From a virus (taxonomy: Duplodnaviria > Heunggongvirae > Uroviricota > Caudoviricetes), in the IMG/VR virus record IMGVR_UViG_2654587686_000016: a DNA stretch of 13,445 bases. The stretch is one strand, 5' to 3'. The notes beneath the pieces are model-generated. The model saw only the letters and a list, made by a program, of their open reading frames with translations, was not told the DNA's origin and ran no database searches. The translations under genes were made by a program, and so were the position numbers. Of the stretch, positions 1,676 to 9,086 are shown in pieces. The first letter of the stretch is position 1. Each line of letters begins with the position of its first letter.

Positions 1676-1831
1676 TTACTCCTCAGGTTCGTAAGCTGTG
1701 AAGACAGCGACCTCCGTCTGGCCGGTTCGGATTCGTACCTCGCAGAGGTCTTTCCTCGTTACCAGTGCCGTCACTATGACGGTTAAACAGATGACGATCA
1801 GGGCGATTAACATCGCCTTTTGCTGCTTCAT
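1676..1831 (-). CDS. hok: Hok-family type I toxin (51 aa, HokD/RelF-like)
   Basis: Translation MKQQKAMLIALIVICLTVIVTALVTRKDLCEVRIRTGQTEVAVFTAYEPEE matches the Hok/RelF sequence as I remember it: a single TM helix and conserved Cys. SD AAGGAG lies 8 nt upstream of the ATG. The 70-aa ORF in the track is an in-frame over-extension. Confidence 0.85.
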   Translation of the reverse strand: MKQQKAMLIALIVICLTVIVTALVTRKDLCEVRIRTGQTEVAVFTAYEPEE

Positions 1832-2010
1832 AGCCTGCTTCTCCTTGCCTTTCGGCACGTAAGAGGCTAACCTACATGTGCAAAGCATGAAATTGGCCTC
1901 AGATTAATGTTAAGCGTCTTGCCGGACGCGTAATGTTAACTGGGGCTTTTCTCTATCTGCCTTTTGGTGTTCATGCCTGAGGCAGATAGCCTCAAGCACC
2001 CGCAGCAATT
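1832..2010 (-). promoter_or_regulatory. hok mRNA 5' leader with hok-like structural elements; expected location of the overlapping mok frame and the antisense sok RNA (+ strand)
   Basis: The - strand leader contains CTTGAGGCTATCTGCCTCAGG (a tac-like stem) and TAGCCTCTTAC...CAAGGAGAAG just upstream of the hok ATG, resembling canonical hok leaders from memory. The sok promoter and exact RNA ends are not mapped. Confidence 0.45.
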
Positions 2011-2388
2011 CTAACTATCCAATAGATCAATGCCAACCTCTTTTCCTGCAACATCTCTCATCAGAAGTGACCCAAATTCATCCAATCAGCACAAAAGAAA
2101 CATTTAAAGCGTGAATGCTACCGAACGTTCATTTCAATTACATCGTTTTGATTTTTAACAGTTTTCACCTCAACAAATCAAATGGCATTAGCATTCATCA
2201 TGGAAGAAAGACTGATAAAAATGATCATTTTCAATGACTTATGATCACATCGGGTATTGCCAAGTCATTCCTTTTACGCCAGGATACCCACAAGTGAGTA
2301 GTCGAGGAGAGTTTGCCAATTTTTGCGATATAAATTTCAATGTCCGAAGAACCATTAATTGTTAATTGATTCTGTATAAGGTATTAAC

Positions 2389-3486
2389 ATGACAATTTCA
2401 TATATTCCTATTCTGAAAGCGAAACGTTCTGAGTTATCAGCTTTATCGCAGCTATCCATTGAAAAGAAATCAAAAATTTTGCCATTACTCGAAATTGAAC
2501 CAGTGCCAATTGACCCTGATTCAGGTATTGCCTTAAAGAGTTATAACGAGACTCTTATAGAGTTCGGAAAGAAAGTCTCAAAATCTTGCTCAGATATGCA
2601 AGGTGTTTATATTGATGGATTATTAATTGAAGAGCATTTTATTTCTCCTGAAGATCATTACCCTATAATAAATGCGGTTAATCAAGTTAGAGATATGGAG
2701 ATAAGAGTTATTCCTGTCAGTTCACCAACTCGCCCATCTAACTATAAAAGAGCGATTGATGAATTAATGCAGAATGAAATATGCTTGAGATTAACCACGT
2801 TAGATCTGGTTAACCCACAATTAATAACGCATTACATTAATCATCTGGGAATTCCTTTATCAAATATTGATATAATTATTGACTTAAGAGATGAGTTAAC
2901 CGAGGATAAAATTAATTCCGGCGAACTATATACTTTGGCAATGGGATTGATAAACAATCTGGCGCACCTCAATGAATACAGAAAAGTGATTCTTTCTGGG
3001 GGTTCATTTCCTACAGATCTCAGTGATATTTCTGTTGGTCTATATTCTCAACCTCGAATCGAGTGGATTTTATGGCAGAGTTTAATGAATAGAAAAGAAC
3101 TTGCCAGAAATGTGATTTATAGTGATTATGGAGTACAGCACCCCGACTTTAATAGGCTTTCGACGCGATTCCCTAGCGTATCTGCCAGCGTCAGATACTC
3201 TGGAGATAATGACTTTTGGGTATTTCGAGGAAGAGTAGCTAATCGCTTTGGTTATGAACAATATGGTAAACATAGTGAGGATATTCTTGCTCATCGAGAA
3301 TATTCAGGGCCTACATTCTGTGCGGGAGATAGAGACATAGAATATTATGCAAACGAGTATCAAGCCTACAAAGCCAATCCCTCTGGTAACTATAAATTTG
3401 GTAGCCCAGAGGTATGGCGTAGGATTGGGCAAAACCATCACATAACTAAGGTTGTTGAGCAACTCGCCACTCTTTACGGGCTTTAA
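2389..3486 (+). CDS. Uncharacterised 365-aa protein, gene A of an AT-rich accessory cassette
   Basis: Long uninterrupted ORF at about 33-35% GC (counted on two 60-nt samples), with a weak SD (AAGG) 9 nt upstream. Hydrophilic, with no TM segment and no catalytic motif I can name. Preceded by a ~500-bp AT-rich ORF-free region. Confidence 0.8.
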   Translation: MTISYIPILKAKRSELSALSQLSIEKKSKILPLLEIEPVPIDPDSGIALKSYNETLIEFGKKVSKSCSDMQGVYIDGLLIEEHFISPEDHYPIINAVNQVRDMEIRVIPVSSPTRPSNYKRAIDELMQNEICLRLTTLDLVNPQLITHYINHLGIPLSNIDIIIDLRDELTEDKINSGELYTLAMGLINNLAHLNEYRKVILSGGSFPTDLSDISVGLYSQPRIEWILWQSLMNRKELARNVIYSDYGVQHPDFNRLSTRFPSVSASVRYSGDNDFWVFRGRVANRFGYEQYGKHSEDILAHREYSGPTFCAGDRDIEYYANEYQAYKANPSGNYKFGSPEVWRRIGQNHHITKVVEQLATLYGL

Positions 3487-4024
3487 GTTTAACTCGAACA
3501 GCTTCACGAAGCTCGCCAACATCCATACTATTGGCGAGTTTTGACCATAAGACGCGTTTAGGTTTATTTTTCAAATTCTGTAGCTCCCCTACATCACTTA
3601 ATAGGGAAAGCAATTCATCTTTCCAAAGAAGCATTGTTAAGGAAAGTTTGTCCACTTGTGGATTCAACTTGCTAGTTCGAATTGTTTTTAAATGGATACC
3701 TTGCCGTGCACCTTGCGTAACTTGCTTTATCCCCCACCATGATGGAACTATGCTTAAAGCATCATAAAGATGGCAATCAGAGACAACCAAAGTTACTTTA
3801 TCCATCACTGATGAGTAATGTTGCACCTGCGCTGGTAATCTGAGCAAGTTATCACTCTTGCTCTTCAACTCATAACCATGTATAAGCCCATTGATCACTG
3901 CTATATCAGCTCTGCTAGCCCCTAGATTCATCGTAAACTCATCAATGATTAGGGTGTCAGGATCTTTATGATGATCTCTCAGAATCTTGGCATGCACAGC
4001 CTTTCTTACATCAATGTCTCTCAT
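3446..4024 (-). CDS. Uncharacterised 192-aa protein with a PD-(D/E)xK-like nuclease signature, gene B of the AT-rich cassette
   Basis: ORF convergent with gene A, overlapping it by 41 nt at the 3' ends. Motif E29 ... RA-D40-IAVI ... GY-E52-L-K54 fits the D-x(n)-(D/E)xK pattern of a hydrophobic beta-strand followed by ExK. GC roughly 37-40% on two 60-nt samples. Confidence 0.75.
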   Translation of the reverse strand: MRDIDVRKAVHAKILRDHHKDPDTLIIDEFTMNLGASRADIAVINGLIHGYELKSKSDNLLRLPAQVQHYSSVMDKVTLVVSDCHLYDALSIVPSWWGIKQVTQGARQGIHLKTIRTSKLNPQVDKLSLTMLLWKDELLSLLSDVGELQNLKNKPKRVLWSKLANSMDVGELREAVRVKLKARKEWRVAQQP

Positions 4025-4329
4025 ACCATAGTTGCGCTTTCATCGACTCTCTCAAGCCATGATTCTATATCATGGTTCGCATGAATGCCATTTGATATGA
4101 CCAGTGGTTAAACATTGCACAGAAAAGTGGATGTGTATTTTAACAAAAGCAATGACGGCTAACCATGTTGGTATGTCGATAAAATGTTTCAACGTAAGCA
4201 TTATCTGTTCCGCCCTTTCAGACGGCCTCCTGATGTTCTGAGGGTGCAGAATCCCTCCGGTTAAGGGTTTAATAAAAATCGTTTCTGATTTAAATCTTCA
4301 GTATTTAGTTGTTAGTCGGTTTATAGCCT

Positions 4330-4641
4330 TTATGCTTCGGCCTTATTTCTCAGCCATACACAAACCGGGCCATCTTCGGTGTCATGTATTGAACCAATAA
4401 ACCATCCATTGCCCTCTGGTCGTTCCGGTTCCCATGCAGAAATATCAGCATCACACGCATCAAGGTCAGCACATCCTTCATCTCTGAAGCAGAGGACGTA
4501 TTGAAGATTATTTTCCTCCATCCAGGCGTTAAACTCTTCCGTTGAAATATATTCCCGACCGTCACAGAATTTTTCATATTCAGGATGCGTCCAGCAGCCA
4601 TATTCATCACGTACTACTGGTATTTCTTTAATTTCATTCAT
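4330..4641 (-). CDS. Hypothetical phage protein (103 aa), acidic and Cys-containing
   Basis: ORF in the leftward early operon; its start overlaps the stop of the upstream 84-aa ORF by 8 nt, consistent with operon packing. Confidence 0.6.
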   Translation of the reverse strand: MNEIKEIPVVRDEYGCWTHPEYEKFCDGREYISTEEFNAWMEENNLQYVLCFRDEGCADLDACDADISAWEPERPEGNGWFIGSIHDTEDGPVCVWLRNKAEA

Positions 4642-4888: not shown

Positions 4889-5307
4889 CGCACCACCTCC
4901 TCAAAATTCCCCTGATAAAACGCCAGTACGCGCTGCATAACTTCGCTCTTCCGGCACTCGAGACAGATTATGTTCAGACGCCTGTCGTAGCGACGTATTT
5001 CTCCGTCAGGTAATGACCAGATAAGGTCCGGATCAACCGCAGATGGTTTCTTCAGCTTTGCCCTTGAGAGCTTTTTACGGGCATTTTGCCAGTCCTTACG
5101 CGCCTGTTCAGACGGGAATAACCCGTAACCAGAGTTGTATACATCGCCACTGGCAACCAGCTCTCTGGCCAGAACGCTCATCAGATATCTTGTTGCCCCA
5201 GTTTTAGTTTCCAGTTGTCGTAACGTCTCGCGCCCACTCTGGCGTACGAGTTCAACAACCTGCCCTTTAATTTTCTCCTGCTCTTCTTGTGTAAAAACTT
5301 TTGCCAC
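4885..5307 (-). CDS. Hypothetical phage protein (140 aa), possible HTH-containing replication-associated protein
   Basis: ORF immediately downstream of the replication initiator-like gene in the same operon. The N-terminal segment ETLRQLETKTGATRYLMSVLARELV looks helix-turn-helix-like. Confidence 0.55.
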   Translation of the reverse strand: MAKVFTQEEQEKIKGQVVELVRQSGRETLRQLETKTGATRYLMSVLARELVASGDVYNSGYGLFPSEQARKDWQNARKKLSRAKLKKPSAVDPDLIWSLPDGEIRRYDRRLNIICLECRKSEVMQRVLAFYQGNFEEVVR

Positions 5308-5347
5308 AAGCCCTCCTGAAAATTACCTCATGACCAGAAATTAACAC

Positions 5348-6325
5348 TTACCCCCTGAAGCCCGGCGGAATTTCAGTGTCCGGTTCAGAAATGTGATTCA
5401 CGCAACGCTGCGCAGGCGAACGCCCCAGGCGGATAACCAGTTCATCCCATTTTTCCCGGAGTTTTGCCGGACTCATGATGTTTTTTACCCAGAACGAATC
5501 CCGCTGGAGACGCCCAAACATTTCACAAATTTGTCTGTGAGTTCTGCCATCCAGCATCCGCATTGTGCGAACGTCATTGGCCCATGCTGTCCAGTTGGGT
5601 TCTTTCGGTCTAGTGATCTCGCCATCATCGCTGGCCGCCTGCTCGTAAAGACTCACGATTCGTCCCCAGATCCACTGTGCGCACACCAAATCTTCCTGAC
5701 TTCCCCACTGGCGTTTTTTCGCACTGAACACAACCGCGTCAGGGTGTCGGGTTAAAAAATCCTGTTCAGCCGTCTGCGGGTCCGGTTGCGAAGCGTCCGG
5801 ACAAGAAGATCTTTTATCTGACGGATCAGGTTTTAATACTGACGGATCGGGGTCAATCATCGCCCCCCTAATCGGCAGTTTTTTATCAACAGTTGATCCA
5901 TCAAAATTTGACGGGTCAACCGTTGAGGGGTCAATATTTGACGGGTCAACTGTTAACGGGTCATTTTTTGCCGGGCTAATTTTTCTTTTTGGTTTATATG
6001 ACTCACGCGCCGCCGCCGCAGCTGCTTCGAGTTTTTCCACATTAAGCCGATAGATATTGCTTACATTACGCCCACCGACCTTACGCTCTTCCTTCGTCAG
6101 CCAGCCCTCTTTCGCCAGTTCTGCAATAGCCGATTTCACTGTGGATTCACTTCTTGCACCGATCTGACGCCGGATAGTTTCAATGGCAGGCCATGACACG
6201 CCCTCGTCATTGCTGTAGTCTGCAAGACGGGCCATAACCGCCACCCTGGATAAGATCATGCCGGTGAAGGCGCACCCTTCCCAGACAAGACCATGAAGCT
6301 TGCTGCTCATAAAACCCCCGAACAC
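5348..6325 (-). CDS. Replication initiator-like protein (lambda O analogue): N-terminal winged-HTH, central 5-aa repeats encoded by the iterons
   Basis: Occupies the position after the cro-like and ydaT-like genes. N-terminus is HTH-like (SRVAVMARLADYSNDEG...TVKSAIAELAKEGWL). The internal repeat DPSNIDPSTVDPSNFDGSTVD corresponds to 15-bp tandem DNA repeats. The ORF starts at a GTG; an ATG at 6310 with a GGGGG SD 5 nt upstream is the more likely start. Confidence 0.75.
   Translation of the reverse strand: MFGGFMSSKLHGLVWEGCAFTGMILSRVAVMARLADYSNDEGVSWPAIETIRRQIGARSESTVKSAIAELAKEGWLTKEERKVGGRNVSNIYRLNVEKLEAAAAAARESYKPKRKISPAKNDPLTVDPSNIDPSTVDPSNFDGSTVDKKLPIRGAMIDPDPSVLKPDPSDKRSSCPDASQPDPQTAEQDFLTRHPDAVVFSAKKRQWGSQEDLVCAQWIWGRIVSLYEQAASDDGEITRPKEPNWTAWANDVRTMRMLDGRTHRQICEMFGRLQRDSFWVKNIMSPAKLREKWDELVIRLGRSPAQRCVNHISEPDTEIPPGFRG
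5820..5965. repeat. Iteron array (candidate phage replication origin) inside the replication initiator gene
   Basis: Four 15-bp tandem repeats start at 5910, 5925, 5940 and 5955 (GACGGGTCAAC / GAGGGGTCAAT / GACGGGTCAAC / AACGGGTCATT), with two degenerate copies at 5820 and 5841. An AT-rich tract follows at 5961-6000 (TCATTTTTTGCCGGGCTAATTTTTCTTTTTGGTTTATATG). Confidence 0.6.
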
Positions 6326-6332
6326 CGTGCTT

Positions 6333-6758
6333 TTAGTGCATCACCACAGCATTCCCTGCCGGGCCGCCGCGATTCATCTGGTCATACAAAACAACCGCTG
6401 ACGCAACAAAATCATCGACATCCTTCACCAGCCGATCCCTCCGTTCGACGATCTCACGGTAATATTCAGAACTGTGGCTGCGCATACGGGCCACCAGCAA
6501 AGGCGGCATCGCCTTTTCGATCGCCGGTAACAGAGCCTGCATTTTTTCAACAGCATCAGGGGTGTCTTTATCCAGCCAACGGAAAATTTTCTGGGTATTA
6601 CGGGCCAGGGCTTCCGGATGGCTGTCGTCGTACAGTTCAGGGAACGTCATCCCCAGTTCGAAATAAGTCCGGGCTATTTCAGCTGCAGGAACTTTCTCAC
6701 CATCAGGGTATGCCCAGGCATTCATCGCCATGCGGATGTGCTCATGTTTGATTTTCAT
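6333..6758 (-). CDS. ydaT: YdaT-like protein (141 aa)
   Basis: Second gene of the operon divergent from the repressor, overlapping the upstream cro-like gene by 17 nt. Length matches K-12 Rac YdaT (about 140 aa, from memory), with SD GAGG upstream. Confidence 0.7.
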   Translation of the reverse strand: MKIKHEHIRMAMNAWAYPDGEKVPAAEIARTYFELGMTFPELYDDSHPEALARNTQKIFRWLDKDTPDAVEKMQALLPAIEKAMPPLLVARMRSHSSEYYREIVERRDRLVKDVDDFVASAVVLYDQMNRGGPAGNAVVMH

Positions 6759-7065
6759 GAATCATTTGCCTCTTGATGCTTCGGGTATGATCGTTTTCGT
6801 CATTTGGTTGCTTCATCGACATATTCTGCGAATAACATGACGAGCGTCGTAAGTATGTCCAATCAACATCAGGACGAAGTTCTTCACACAGGACACCACC
6901 TTTTGTTGCTCGTTCAATCGCAGGACATCTCTCAGCAGGTAACTGACGTACACCTTTGATCCATTGATTTACGCTTGGAGGAGATACACCTAAAAGCCTA
7001 GCCATTGCTGATTGCCCACCGACAACAGCACAAGCTCGTTTGAATGAATAGTTATCTTTTTTCAT
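6742..7065 (-). CDS. ydaS: Cro/CI-type HTH DNA-binding protein, YdaS-like (first gene of the rightward-equivalent early operon)
   Basis: MKKDNYSFKRACAVVGGQSAMARLLGVSPPSVNQWIKGVRQLPAERCPAIERA closely resembles Rac YdaS as I remember it. The ATG at 7065 has GGAG 9 nt upstream; the upstream in-frame ATG in the ORF track lies within the RBS. Divergent from the repressor gene. Confidence 0.75.
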   Translation of the reverse strand: MKKDNYSFKRACAVVGGQSAMARLLGVSPPSVNQWIKGVRQLPAERCPAIERATKGGVLCEELRPDVDWTYLRRSSCYSQNMSMKQPNDENDHTRSIKRQMIHENQT

Positions 7066-7089
7066 CGAATGAACTCCAAAAAACACGCA

Positions 7090-7140
7090 ACAATATTAGG
7101 CATAGCCTAATGAAATTGTCAATAGGCTATGCCTAATACA
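7090..7140. promoter_or_regulatory. OR-like control region: two 17-bp palindromic operators overlapping a sigma70-like promoter for the ydaS-like operon
   Basis: Operator ATTAGGCATAGCCTAAT at 7094-7110 is a perfect palindrome (arms ATTAGGC / GCCTAAT); a second copy (reverse complement ATTAGGCATAGCCTATT) is at 7120-7136. On the - strand, TTGACA (7121-7116), an 18-nt spacer and TAATAT (7097-7092) form a promoter pointing at the ydaS-like gene. Confidence 0.65.
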
Positions 7141-7189
7141 TCGAGAGTAGGGATTGCCTAACGCGATGCGCATAGGAGACTATTAAGCA

Positions 7190-7666
7190 ATGCTTAGTGG
7201 TAAAGACTTAGGCCGAGCGATAGAGCAGGCCATTAACAAAAAAATTGCATCAGGAGCCGTCAAATCAAAGGCGGAAATCGCACGTCATTTCAAAGTCCAA
7301 CCACCATCAATCCATGACTGGATTAAGAAAGGTTCGATAAGTAAAGACAAACTTCCAGAACTATGGCGTTTCTTTTCTGATGTGGTTGGTCCAGAGCATT
7401 GGGGGCTTAACGAATACCCCATACCAACCCCATCCGCTTCAGATACAAAAAGTGAACTTTTAGACATAAACAGCCTTTATCAAGCCGCCTCTGATGAAAA
7501 AAGAGCAATTGTGGCTTTCATCTTATCTGGAAATGCTACGGAGCCTAGTTGGGTTGATCATGACGTTCGCGCCTACATTGCCGCAATGGAAATGAAGGTA
7601 GCTAACTATCTGAAAAATCAAGAATCAAAACGGAAAAGCCAGAACATCACCAAGACAGGAACTTAA
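7190..7666 (+). CDS. racR: RacR-like prophage repressor (158 aa)
   Basis: 158-aa ORF, the same length as K-12 RacR from memory, divergent from the cro-like gene and flanked on both sides by the same operator sequence. N-terminal HTH-like segment; AGGAG 12 nt upstream of the ATG. Confidence 0.8.
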   Translation: MLSGKDLGRAIEQAINKKIASGAVKSKAEIARHFKVQPPSIHDWIKKGSISKDKLPELWRFFSDVVGPEHWGLNEYPIPTPSASDTKSELLDINSLYQAASDEKRAIVAFILSGNATEPSWVDHDVRAYIAAMEMKVANYLKNQESKRKSQNITKTGT

Positions 7667-7680
7667 ACTTATATGGTCCG

Positions 7681-7702
7681 ACGGGAAATTCCTAGTTCCC
7701 GT
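7681..7702 (+). terminator. Candidate weak terminator/hairpin downstream of the repressor gene
   Basis: Stem ACGGGAA / TTCCCGT (7 bp) with an 8-nt loop, 15 nt after the racR-like stop, followed by a weak T-rich stretch (TAGTTAAC). Confidence 0.3.
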
Positions 7703-7759
7703 TAGTTAACTCCTACTACCTCTTCCACAAACCATCACCTATTAGGTTGCGCCCAAATT

Positions 7760-7803
7760 ATTAGGCATAGCCTATTGACAAGTAATTAGGCATTTCCTAT
7801 AGT
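7760..7803 (+). promoter_or_regulatory. OL/PL-like promoter with overlapping operator, driving the ydaF-like through exonuclease, xis and int genes
   Basis: Operator copy ATTAGGCATAGCCTATT at 7760-7776. TTGACA at 7775-7780, an exactly 17-nt spacer containing an operator half-site (ATTAGGCAT), then TATAGT at 7798-7803. Mirrors the OR promoter. Confidence 0.6.
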
Positions 7804-7984
7804 TTTCCCATACCAACCCATCCCGTCCCACACAATACAGGGCAATACCTCGAGTTACCAGGCAGTGGTCAGGGGTTAAGTAGCCAGCCCGAGGCGTAAG
7901 AACATGACGGCAGGGTTCAACTTTAATAACTATGCAGCAGGTTTTTGTTCCGCTACCCCGGCGTTAAGGGGAAATGAGGTCAGC

Positions 7985-8518: not shown

Positions 8519-9086
8519 TAGCTAACCAACGAAGCTAAGGTTGGTAATTAAGGAGTTCTCCACGGGTGAGGTGGAGTGCTTGCGCCGGACACGGGTGAGC
8601 ATCCGGCACTGACAGTTTACTGAAAGGATATTTCCCTGAAAAGTCAGACCATAACGCGAAAGCGCACGGCGAGGTAGCTGGTTCATAGATAGCCTGTCGT
8701 TAAATTTTTGTCGACCGTGCGCTTCCGGTTGTGGCAATCCGCGAAATGGCGCGGCGGTAAGTATGGCGGGGTTATTCCTTCCCCCGTTGCGGACACCGGG
8801 TTGTCAGGTTGACCATACGCTTAAGTGACAACCCCGCTGCAACGCCCTCTGTTATCAATTTTCTGGTGACGTTTGGCGGTATCAGTTTTACTCCGTGACT
8901 GCTCTGCCGCCCTTTTTAAAGTGAATTTTGTGATGTGGTGAATGCGGCTGAGCGCACGCGGAACAGTTAAAACCAAAAACAGTGTTATGGGTGGATTCTC
9001 TGTATCCGGCGTTAATTGTTAACTGGTTAACGTCACCTGGAGGCACCAGGCACCGCATCACAAAATTCATTGTTGAGGACGCGATA

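Follow-up and report, generated by a model that had tools for sequence, protein, structure and literature searches.

An AT-rich block in the viral record IMGVR_UViG_2654587686_000016 (IMG/VR; Caudoviricetes; 13,445 nucleotides, hereafter the window), which comes from a Rac-like lambdoid prophage of Escherichia coli, carries two convergent genes, A and B, that probably represent an autonomous and mobile minimal form of the beta-cII module with a role in defence, free of the gop gene or the HigB/Xre-peptidase pair that accompany its characterized relatives. These relatives are gop-beta-cII of satellite P4, a system active against lambda and P1 (Rousset et al. 2022, PMC9122126; DefenseFinder Gop_beta_cll), and PD-lambda-2, which consists of a HigB-like protein (PD-Lambda-2_A), a toxic Xre-M78 peptidase (PD-Lambda-2_B), and a beta-like protein (PD-Lambda-2_C; Vassallo et al. 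2022, PMC9519451). Based on the homology to these two validated systems, the predicted folds, the catalytic-type residues, the linkage of the two genes, and their mobility among hotspots, an anti-phage role is most likely for the pair. An earlier note on this DNA had proposed an uncharacterized anti-phage or abortive-infection system at this position, an interpretation that is only partly supported, as both proteins are homologous to components of gop-beta-cII and PD-lambda-2 and the cassette represents a variant of systems already known, not an uncharacterized kind.

Protein A is a full-length member of the Pfam family Beta_protein (PF14350, 7.2e-52), matches phrog_9159 (1e-144), and is labelled a 'beta family protein' in RefSeq. 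Among the PADLOC models, A fits those for PD-Lambda-2_C, which align over the full length (PDLC03983, 1.4e-40; PDLC03984, 7.8e-38), far better than the P4 'beta' model, to which there is a weak N-terminal match (1.5e-4). The earlier note had tentatively suggested a paired family (Beta_protein-like, or sce7725/sce7726-like) for the two proteins; this suggestion holds for Beta_protein and, in the case of B, for sce7726, while A falls outside of sce7725_fam (NF033831), with 12.3 bits against the NCBIfam cut-off of 60 bits and the N-terminal 35 residues alone aligning. The AlphaFold2 model of A (predicted local distance difference test, pLDDT, 93.5) is a TIM barrel with the (beta/alpha)8 arrangement and conserved polar residues at the C-termini of the strands. 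Residues Y5, P7, L9, E15, P32, D165, D246, G338, and H351 are invariant across the family, with D76 and R223 near-invariant, and as the invariant residues lie mostly at strand ends in the model, the conserved positions suggest an active site. Structural matches to A were to generic TIM barrels without a specific solved relative (DpdA, TGT, and Cap10 were present, none prominently), and a sequence search for relatives with a solved structure returned none for A or B. An assignment of A as a DpdA/TGT-like transglycosylase was considered but is not supported, as these matches were inseparable from those to TIM barrels in general and the cysteine cluster of the zinc site is missing from A.

Protein B is a full-length member of the NCBIfam family sce7726_fam (NF033832, 1.7e-56; 191.1 bits against a cut-off of 70 bits; positions 1–184 of 184) and carries the RefSeq label 'sce7726 family protein'. 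It matches the PADLOC model 'cll' (2.4e-28), and homologues of B carry a newer Pfam family, PF26915, named 'Phage_P4_cII'. The AlphaFold2 model (pLDDT 94.4) combines a PD-(D/E)xK core with a small C-terminal helical domain and has the alpha-beta-beta-beta-alpha-beta core fold with the E / D / (D/E)xK catalytic residues. Among 56 close homologues, five residues (E29, D40, E52, K54, and Q66) never vary, and they stay invariant in a 13-member set with P4 cII and actinophage, Firmicute, myxobacterial, and candidate phyla radiation (CPR) members; in the Q-x3-Y motif, Q66 is invariant and Y70 nearly so, with phenylalanine in P4 cII. The nuclease signature that had been noticed in B is thus borne out, as D40, E52, and K54 are invariant and E29 joins them. 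Independent of the B model, the HHpred table of Rousset et al. lists P4 cII as MmcB-like/NucS-like (PMC9122126). Both of the computational checks on the individual proteins that the earlier note had suggested, profile hidden Markov model (HMM) searches and structure prediction, were run, the former giving full-length family matches for both proteins and the latter the TIM barrel and the PD-(D/E)xK nuclease fold at a pLDDT of 93–94.

The association of the two families was explored in two surveys. The B-anchored survey, limited to one genome per species and the best 80 of 450 relatives, spans loci from the Proteobacteria, Acidobacteriota, Firmicutes, Chloroflexota, Actinomycetota, Myxococcota, Gastranaerophilales, and CPR. 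With partner genes called by HMMs built on alignments of both families, a beta-family gene was directly downstream of and convergent with B in 77 of the 80 loci, and the three exceptions were two contig ends and one orphan B. Overlapping 3' coding ends are seen in 75 of the 77 genomic pairs; the median overlap is 53 bp, and the extremes are a 39-bp gap and a 158-bp overlap. The survey of viral contigs anchored on A identified a convergent cII with a 3' overlap in 50 of 53 loci (two contig ends and one rearranged locus, L121, make up the remainder). Collectively, the pair recurs at more than 100 independent loci, and the suggestion that A and B might co-occur in other genomes at variable loci is confirmed.

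Flank clustering of 76 loci revealed no universal third gene, the sole recurrences being the PD-lambda-2 A and B components and lineage-specific synteny. PD-Lambda-2_B is upstream of beta in 17 of the 76 loci (1.8e-150 in L027) and PD-Lambda-2_A in nine (1e-40), and PD-lambda-2-type loci picked by the peptidase alone (L144–L146) all possess a convergent, overlapping cII after beta (3/3). The HigB-peptidase pair also occurs alone on an Acinetobacter plasmid. Given the near-constant adjacency and convergence of the two genes, and the presence of cII in the PD-lambda-2-type loci, beta and cII look like a core, and the simplest reading of these gene neighbourhoods is that the two form an invariant core to which gop, the HigB/Xre-peptidase pair, and perhaps other genes are optional modules.

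Two loci in the surveys had an unusual gene content. The sole true orphan, L018 from Xenorhabdus koppenhoeferi (5001–6810), has an intact cII-like gene after phage lysis genes; the place of the beta gene is taken by a truncated piece of a Ser/Thr kinase and by a PP2C phosphatase. In L060, a metagenome-assembled genome of Pseudodesulfovibrio, a 161-aa protein (6602–7087) with a coiled coil and one C-terminal transmembrane (TM) helix is encoded by a gene that overlaps the start of beta; its sequence is not similar to that of P4 Gop, but the combination of TM helix and coiled coil is comparable, and it may be a membrane add-on analogous to Gop.

The pair occupies a variety of genomic sites. In another lambdoid prophage of E. 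coli it lies between the lysis genes and the terminase, in a P2-like prophage of Dickeya (L003) between the portal and gpA, beside HicAB (5055–5672), and in Gordonia phage Powerball (L147) between the tail genes and the integrase, also beside HicAB (2725–3317). Further members adjoin an ogr/delta remnant in Vibrio mimicus, fall in a prophage-like region in Acinetobacter, or are carried by Myxococcus phage Mx4 and Mycobacterium phage Mycofy1. Such a spread over different sites is typical of a mobile moron with an accessory or defence role. The adjacency to HicA/HicB in two very distant phages may reflect shared hotspots only, or a functional association.

The genomic data from the window support a horizontal acquisition of the cassette as an accessory module of two genes, in a slot whose cargo varies (Table 1). 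Homology to phage vB_EcoS-640R1 (L090) ends at position 2013 of the window and restarts at 4210, which delimits the inserted block, and between the same flanks 640R1 has an unrelated 1.1-kb set of small genes, in agreement with the accessory-gene hotspot that the earlier note had placed here. Among complete E. coli genomes, 93 of 5426 contain the block, and most contain the flanks. The G+C content of the block is ~0.38 versus 0.49 elsewhere (A, 0.372; B, 0.409; 1889–2388, 0.386; 4025–4329, 0.397; remaining window, 0.486), and the coordinates, strands, and lengths given for A and B in the earlier note were exact, as was the statement that both are AT-rich relative to the phage surroundings. The same note had described ORF-free AT-rich spacers on either side of the genes and the interruption of a uniformly leftward phage operon. 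Neither spacer (1889–2388 and 4025–4329) contains an open reading frame (ORF) of at least 50 aa, but the first ~110 bp of the left spacer belong to hok/sok and, due to the position of the sok/hok RNA, the cassette-specific region upstream of A shrinks to that listed in Table 1; the interruption applies to A, but not to B, which is co-directional with the phage early operon. The right border of the variable slot is formed by a 64-bp island (4210–4273) that is 92% conserved with phage 640R1 and may have a regulatory role or act as a conserved junction, like the sequences flanking lambdoid mosaic modules.

Table 1. Features of the two-gene cassette and of the surrounding prophage, in window coordinates
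Feature	Position	Strand	Remarks
Inserted AT-rich cassette block (moron), ~2.2 kb	2014–4209		nin-like slot between hok/sok and replication-side genes; from the 640R1 comparison and G+C content
Gene A, beta-family protein, 365 aa, predicted TIM barrel	2389–3486	+
Gene B, cII / sce7726-family protein, 192 aa, predicted PD-(D/E)xK nuclease with small C-terminal helical domain	3446–4024	-
Convergent 3' coding overlap of A and B, 41 bp	3446–3486		read from the stop codons
Cassette-specific non-coding region upstream of A	2014–2388	+	must hold the promoter of A
Candidate promoter of B, extended -10-type, TGATATAGAAT (TGnTATA)	4062–4072	-	~39 nt before the start of B
hok/sok type I toxin-antitoxin locus, complete	1676–2001	-	directly left of the cassette
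hok ORF	1676–1888	-
sok/hok regulatory RNA	1826–2001	-	Rfam RF01794, 120 bits
DicF antisense small RNA	8861–8912	+	Rfam RF00039, 76.7 bits
Tyrosine integrase	right end of window

As the TG-n-TATA element upstream of B is invariant in eight enterobacterial cassettes with differing insertion contexts, B seems to bring its own promoter. An A-tract precedes the element in most of these cassettes, and in the window the element (4072–4064 on the - strand) overlaps a consensus promoter-like match (ATGGCA-18-TAGAAT). Upstream of A, a weak candidate (TTGCCA-17-TTCAAT, ~2313–2341) was found by eye, and no positionally conserved motif was detected in this region among the homologues. A 43-aa ORF in the same region (2234–2365) was considered as a conserved micro-gene and rejected, having no similarity to the small ORFs upstream of other cassettes. 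Since A is antisense to the early operon and B is co-directional with it, read-through upon induction would be expected to favour B over A.

The region of the window from 1800 to 4400 is 99.9% identical to chromosomes of O111 and O26 Shiga-toxigenic E. coli (STEC) and 99.4% identical to phage Rac-SA53. The gene content of the window includes a RecE-like exonuclease, DicF, an immunity region, and leftward replication and nin-type genes, amongst them DUF977, YdaT-family, DUF968/YdfU, and hok/sok. The junction of hok/sok and the cassette holds an inserted copy of IS1203 in O111 strain 11128 and of IS1 in Rac-SA53. Small ydfC- and dicB-like ORFs occur close to DicF, typical of the early-left operons of Qin/Rac-type cryptic prophages. 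The immunity region (6764–7810) differs from that of the otherwise 99% identical prophage in O111 strain 11128 (L001), with a 158-aa helix-turn-helix (HTH) repressor-like ORF (7190–7666) in the window versus a hypothetical gene and RelB/RelE in strain 11128, a difference that is a mosaic exchange of the immunity module.

If the pair functions in defence, its expression from the prophage would shield the lysogen from other phages through superinfection exclusion or abortive infection. A division of labour can be proposed with less confidence than the defence role itself, in which B would act as a DNA-cleaving effector and A as its obligate enzymatic partner, either an infection sensor or a brake on B. 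Each gene would have its own promoter, and convergent overlapping transcription, by way of antisense RNA or polymerase collision, could set the ratio of A to B. A broader proposal, which is possible but rather doubtful, joins these elements: beta and cII would be the ancient obligate core of a widespread immunity module, with gop and the HigB/Xre-peptidase pair as lineage-specific add-ons, and the two-gene form would defend alone by a new mechanism in which the TIM-barrel protein A senses infection or signals it to nuclease B and the 3' overlap serves as an antisense or polymerase-collision switch. The phyla concerned extend from the Enterobacterales to the Acidobacteriota, Firmicutes, Actinomycetota, Myxococcota, and CPR bacteria.

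Several observations weigh against a minimal beta-cII defence module. The gene for the reported P4 toxin, gop, is missing here, and as such defence by beta and cII alone is an extrapolation. The published PD-lambda-2 clone (from E. coli ECOR42) stopped 396 bp past the beta-like gene, leaving no room for a full cII, and as this clone conferred defence, cII is not always needed beside beta. The published roles of beta also differ, that of an antidote to gop in P4 versus one in defence and not detoxification in PD-lambda-2, and the enzymatic role of A is a prediction from its structural model. Some members reside in chromosomes with no evident phage context (e.g., Stenotrophomonas), and a promoter and terminator scan of 1850–4400 returned 8 sites versus 8.1 expected from shuffled sequences. 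A literature search for the two-gene form found no paper, and searches with the family names returned genome reports at most.

Three other explanations for the pair can be weighed against the same evidence. The pair could be a selfish addiction module similar to a toxin-antitoxin (TA) system, in which B is a toxin curbed by A and the prophage or island is stabilized through post-segregational killing with no exclusion of phages. Several observations would fit such a module: the cassette neighbours hok/sok here and HicAB in the loci of Dickeya and the Gordonia phage, A and B are strictly inherited together and interlock at their 3' ends, gop/beta have been called a likely TA pair, and PD-lambda-2 is TA-like. 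We nonetheless consider addiction alone to be unlikely, as both characterized relatives confer measurable phage resistance, the genes here converge, unlike the co-directional operons of classical type II TA systems, and the intact B without A in Xenorhabdus would be awkward for an unopposed toxin; addiction and defence are also roles compatible with each other.

A restriction-modification (R-M)-like system, in which A would place a chemical mark on host DNA or nucleotides and B would cut incoming DNA that lacks the mark, would draw on the resemblance of B to many restriction endonucleases and on the invariant acidic and histidine residues of A, and type II R-M systems often consist of two convergent genes with a promoter each. 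This possibility appears improbable: A lacks a cysteine cluster like the zinc site of TGT, and there are no methyltransferase or 7-deazaguanine synthesis genes nearby. Further, PD-lambda-2 is classed as abortive infection and gop-beta-cII kills in response to a single phage protein, such that the sensing of a phage protein fits better than the recognition of a DNA mark. It is similarly hard to credit a role in the phage life cycle or in DNA repair, with the pair containing a regulator of lysogeny or replication, or an MmcB-like repair nuclease that aids the prophage or host. The cII of P4 was named as a clear-plaque gene, and this name, the 'regulatory protein' or 'MmcB-like DNA repair' labels on some database entries, the best structural match of B (SPO1766, a protein of unknown function), and the position of the cassette among replication and nin genes would be in keeping with such a role. 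However, the genes are described as non-essential in P4, the cassette is rare among E. coli genomes despite its widespread flanks, sibling phages carry other cargo in its place, and the pair occupies unrelated slots in unrelated phage types as well as non-phage chromosomal sites across phyla. The rarity, the varied slots, and the replacement by other cargo are the pattern of an accessory or defence moron and not that of a core function.

Favouring the minimal beta-cII module has implications for how the known systems are viewed. Both gop-beta-cII and PD-lambda-2 have been validated and are treated as separate three-gene systems, while the cassette and the comparative data suggest a common two-gene core of a TIM-barrel beta protein and a cII nuclease. 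This core can stand alone and moves among hotspots in lambdoid, P2-like, actinobacterial, and myxobacterial phages, and its convergent, interlocked gene arrangement, which is unusual, persists across phyla. Should the two genes suffice for defence, the pair would offer the simplest experimental handle on the whole family, and the present three-gene detection rules would probably overlook most of the family members. Additionally, as the carriers are prophages of O111 and O26 STEC, the pair could shape the phage susceptibility of these strains, including to therapeutic or Shiga toxin (Stx)-converting phages.

In satellite P4, gop (247–648, +) and beta (651–1718, +) are followed by cII (1746–2540, -). 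The convergence of beta and cII is common to P4 and the window, and both the P4 system and the window pair sit in an accessory hotspot of a mobile element, though the host element is a lambdoid prophage here and a satellite in P4. Over its full length A is 23% identical to P4 beta, a member of the same Pfam family with the invariant residues in common, and B is 28% identical to P4 cII, with the same catalytic-type residues. P4 cII differs in having a C-terminal extension of ~80 aa that is lacking in B, and the two P4 genes are separated by a 27-bp gap with a terminator, in contrast to the 41-bp overlap in the window. A further difference is in gop, a two-TM toxin encoded upstream of beta in the same operon in P4; a hidden or decayed gop upstream of A was considered and rejected, as there is no ORF of at least 50 aa in 1889–2388 and a tblastn search with P4 Gop had E > 7 in this spacer. 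Gop is reported to be toxic without beta, with beta as its antidote (PMC9122126). The system is triggered by the coliphage accessory protein orf184, leading to cell death (10.1101/2023.04.06.535777).

Within the beta family, A belongs to the PD-Lambda-2_C subtype, and the beta-like component of PD-lambda-2 has been described as 'related to a P4 phage antitoxin', needed for defence and dispensable for detoxification (PMC9519451). No ORF adjoining A corresponds to the HigB-like PD-Lambda-2_A or to PD-Lambda-2_B (Xre HTH and M78 peptidase, ~400 aa). As published, PD-lambda-2 has a TA-like pair and no cII, whereas the window has cII and no TA-like pair. The loci L027 (5001–8122) and L144–L146, natural PD-lambda-2-type loci with HigB-like, Xre-M78 peptidase, and beta-like genes, contain a convergent, overlapping cII-like nuclease as a fourth gene, outside of the published three-gene definition of PD-lambda-2. 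A homology search for the E. coli ECOR42 PD-lambda-2 locus returned environmental relatives only, with plasmid matches that were non-enterobacterial. The NCBIfam families sce7725 and sce7726 are named for adjacent genes of Sorangium cellulosum; B is a member of sce7726 and A lies outside of sce7725, and at the Sorangium locus in our survey (L036) the partner gene is beta-type. Beyond these relatives, B shares its predicted fold and E...D...ExK layout with PD-(D/E)xK defence effectors, including Cap4, Can2, restriction endonucleases, and NucS/MmcB-like nucleases. B lacks a fused sensor domain (SAVED/CARF) and has instead a small C-terminal helical domain and a separate, obligate TIM-barrel partner.

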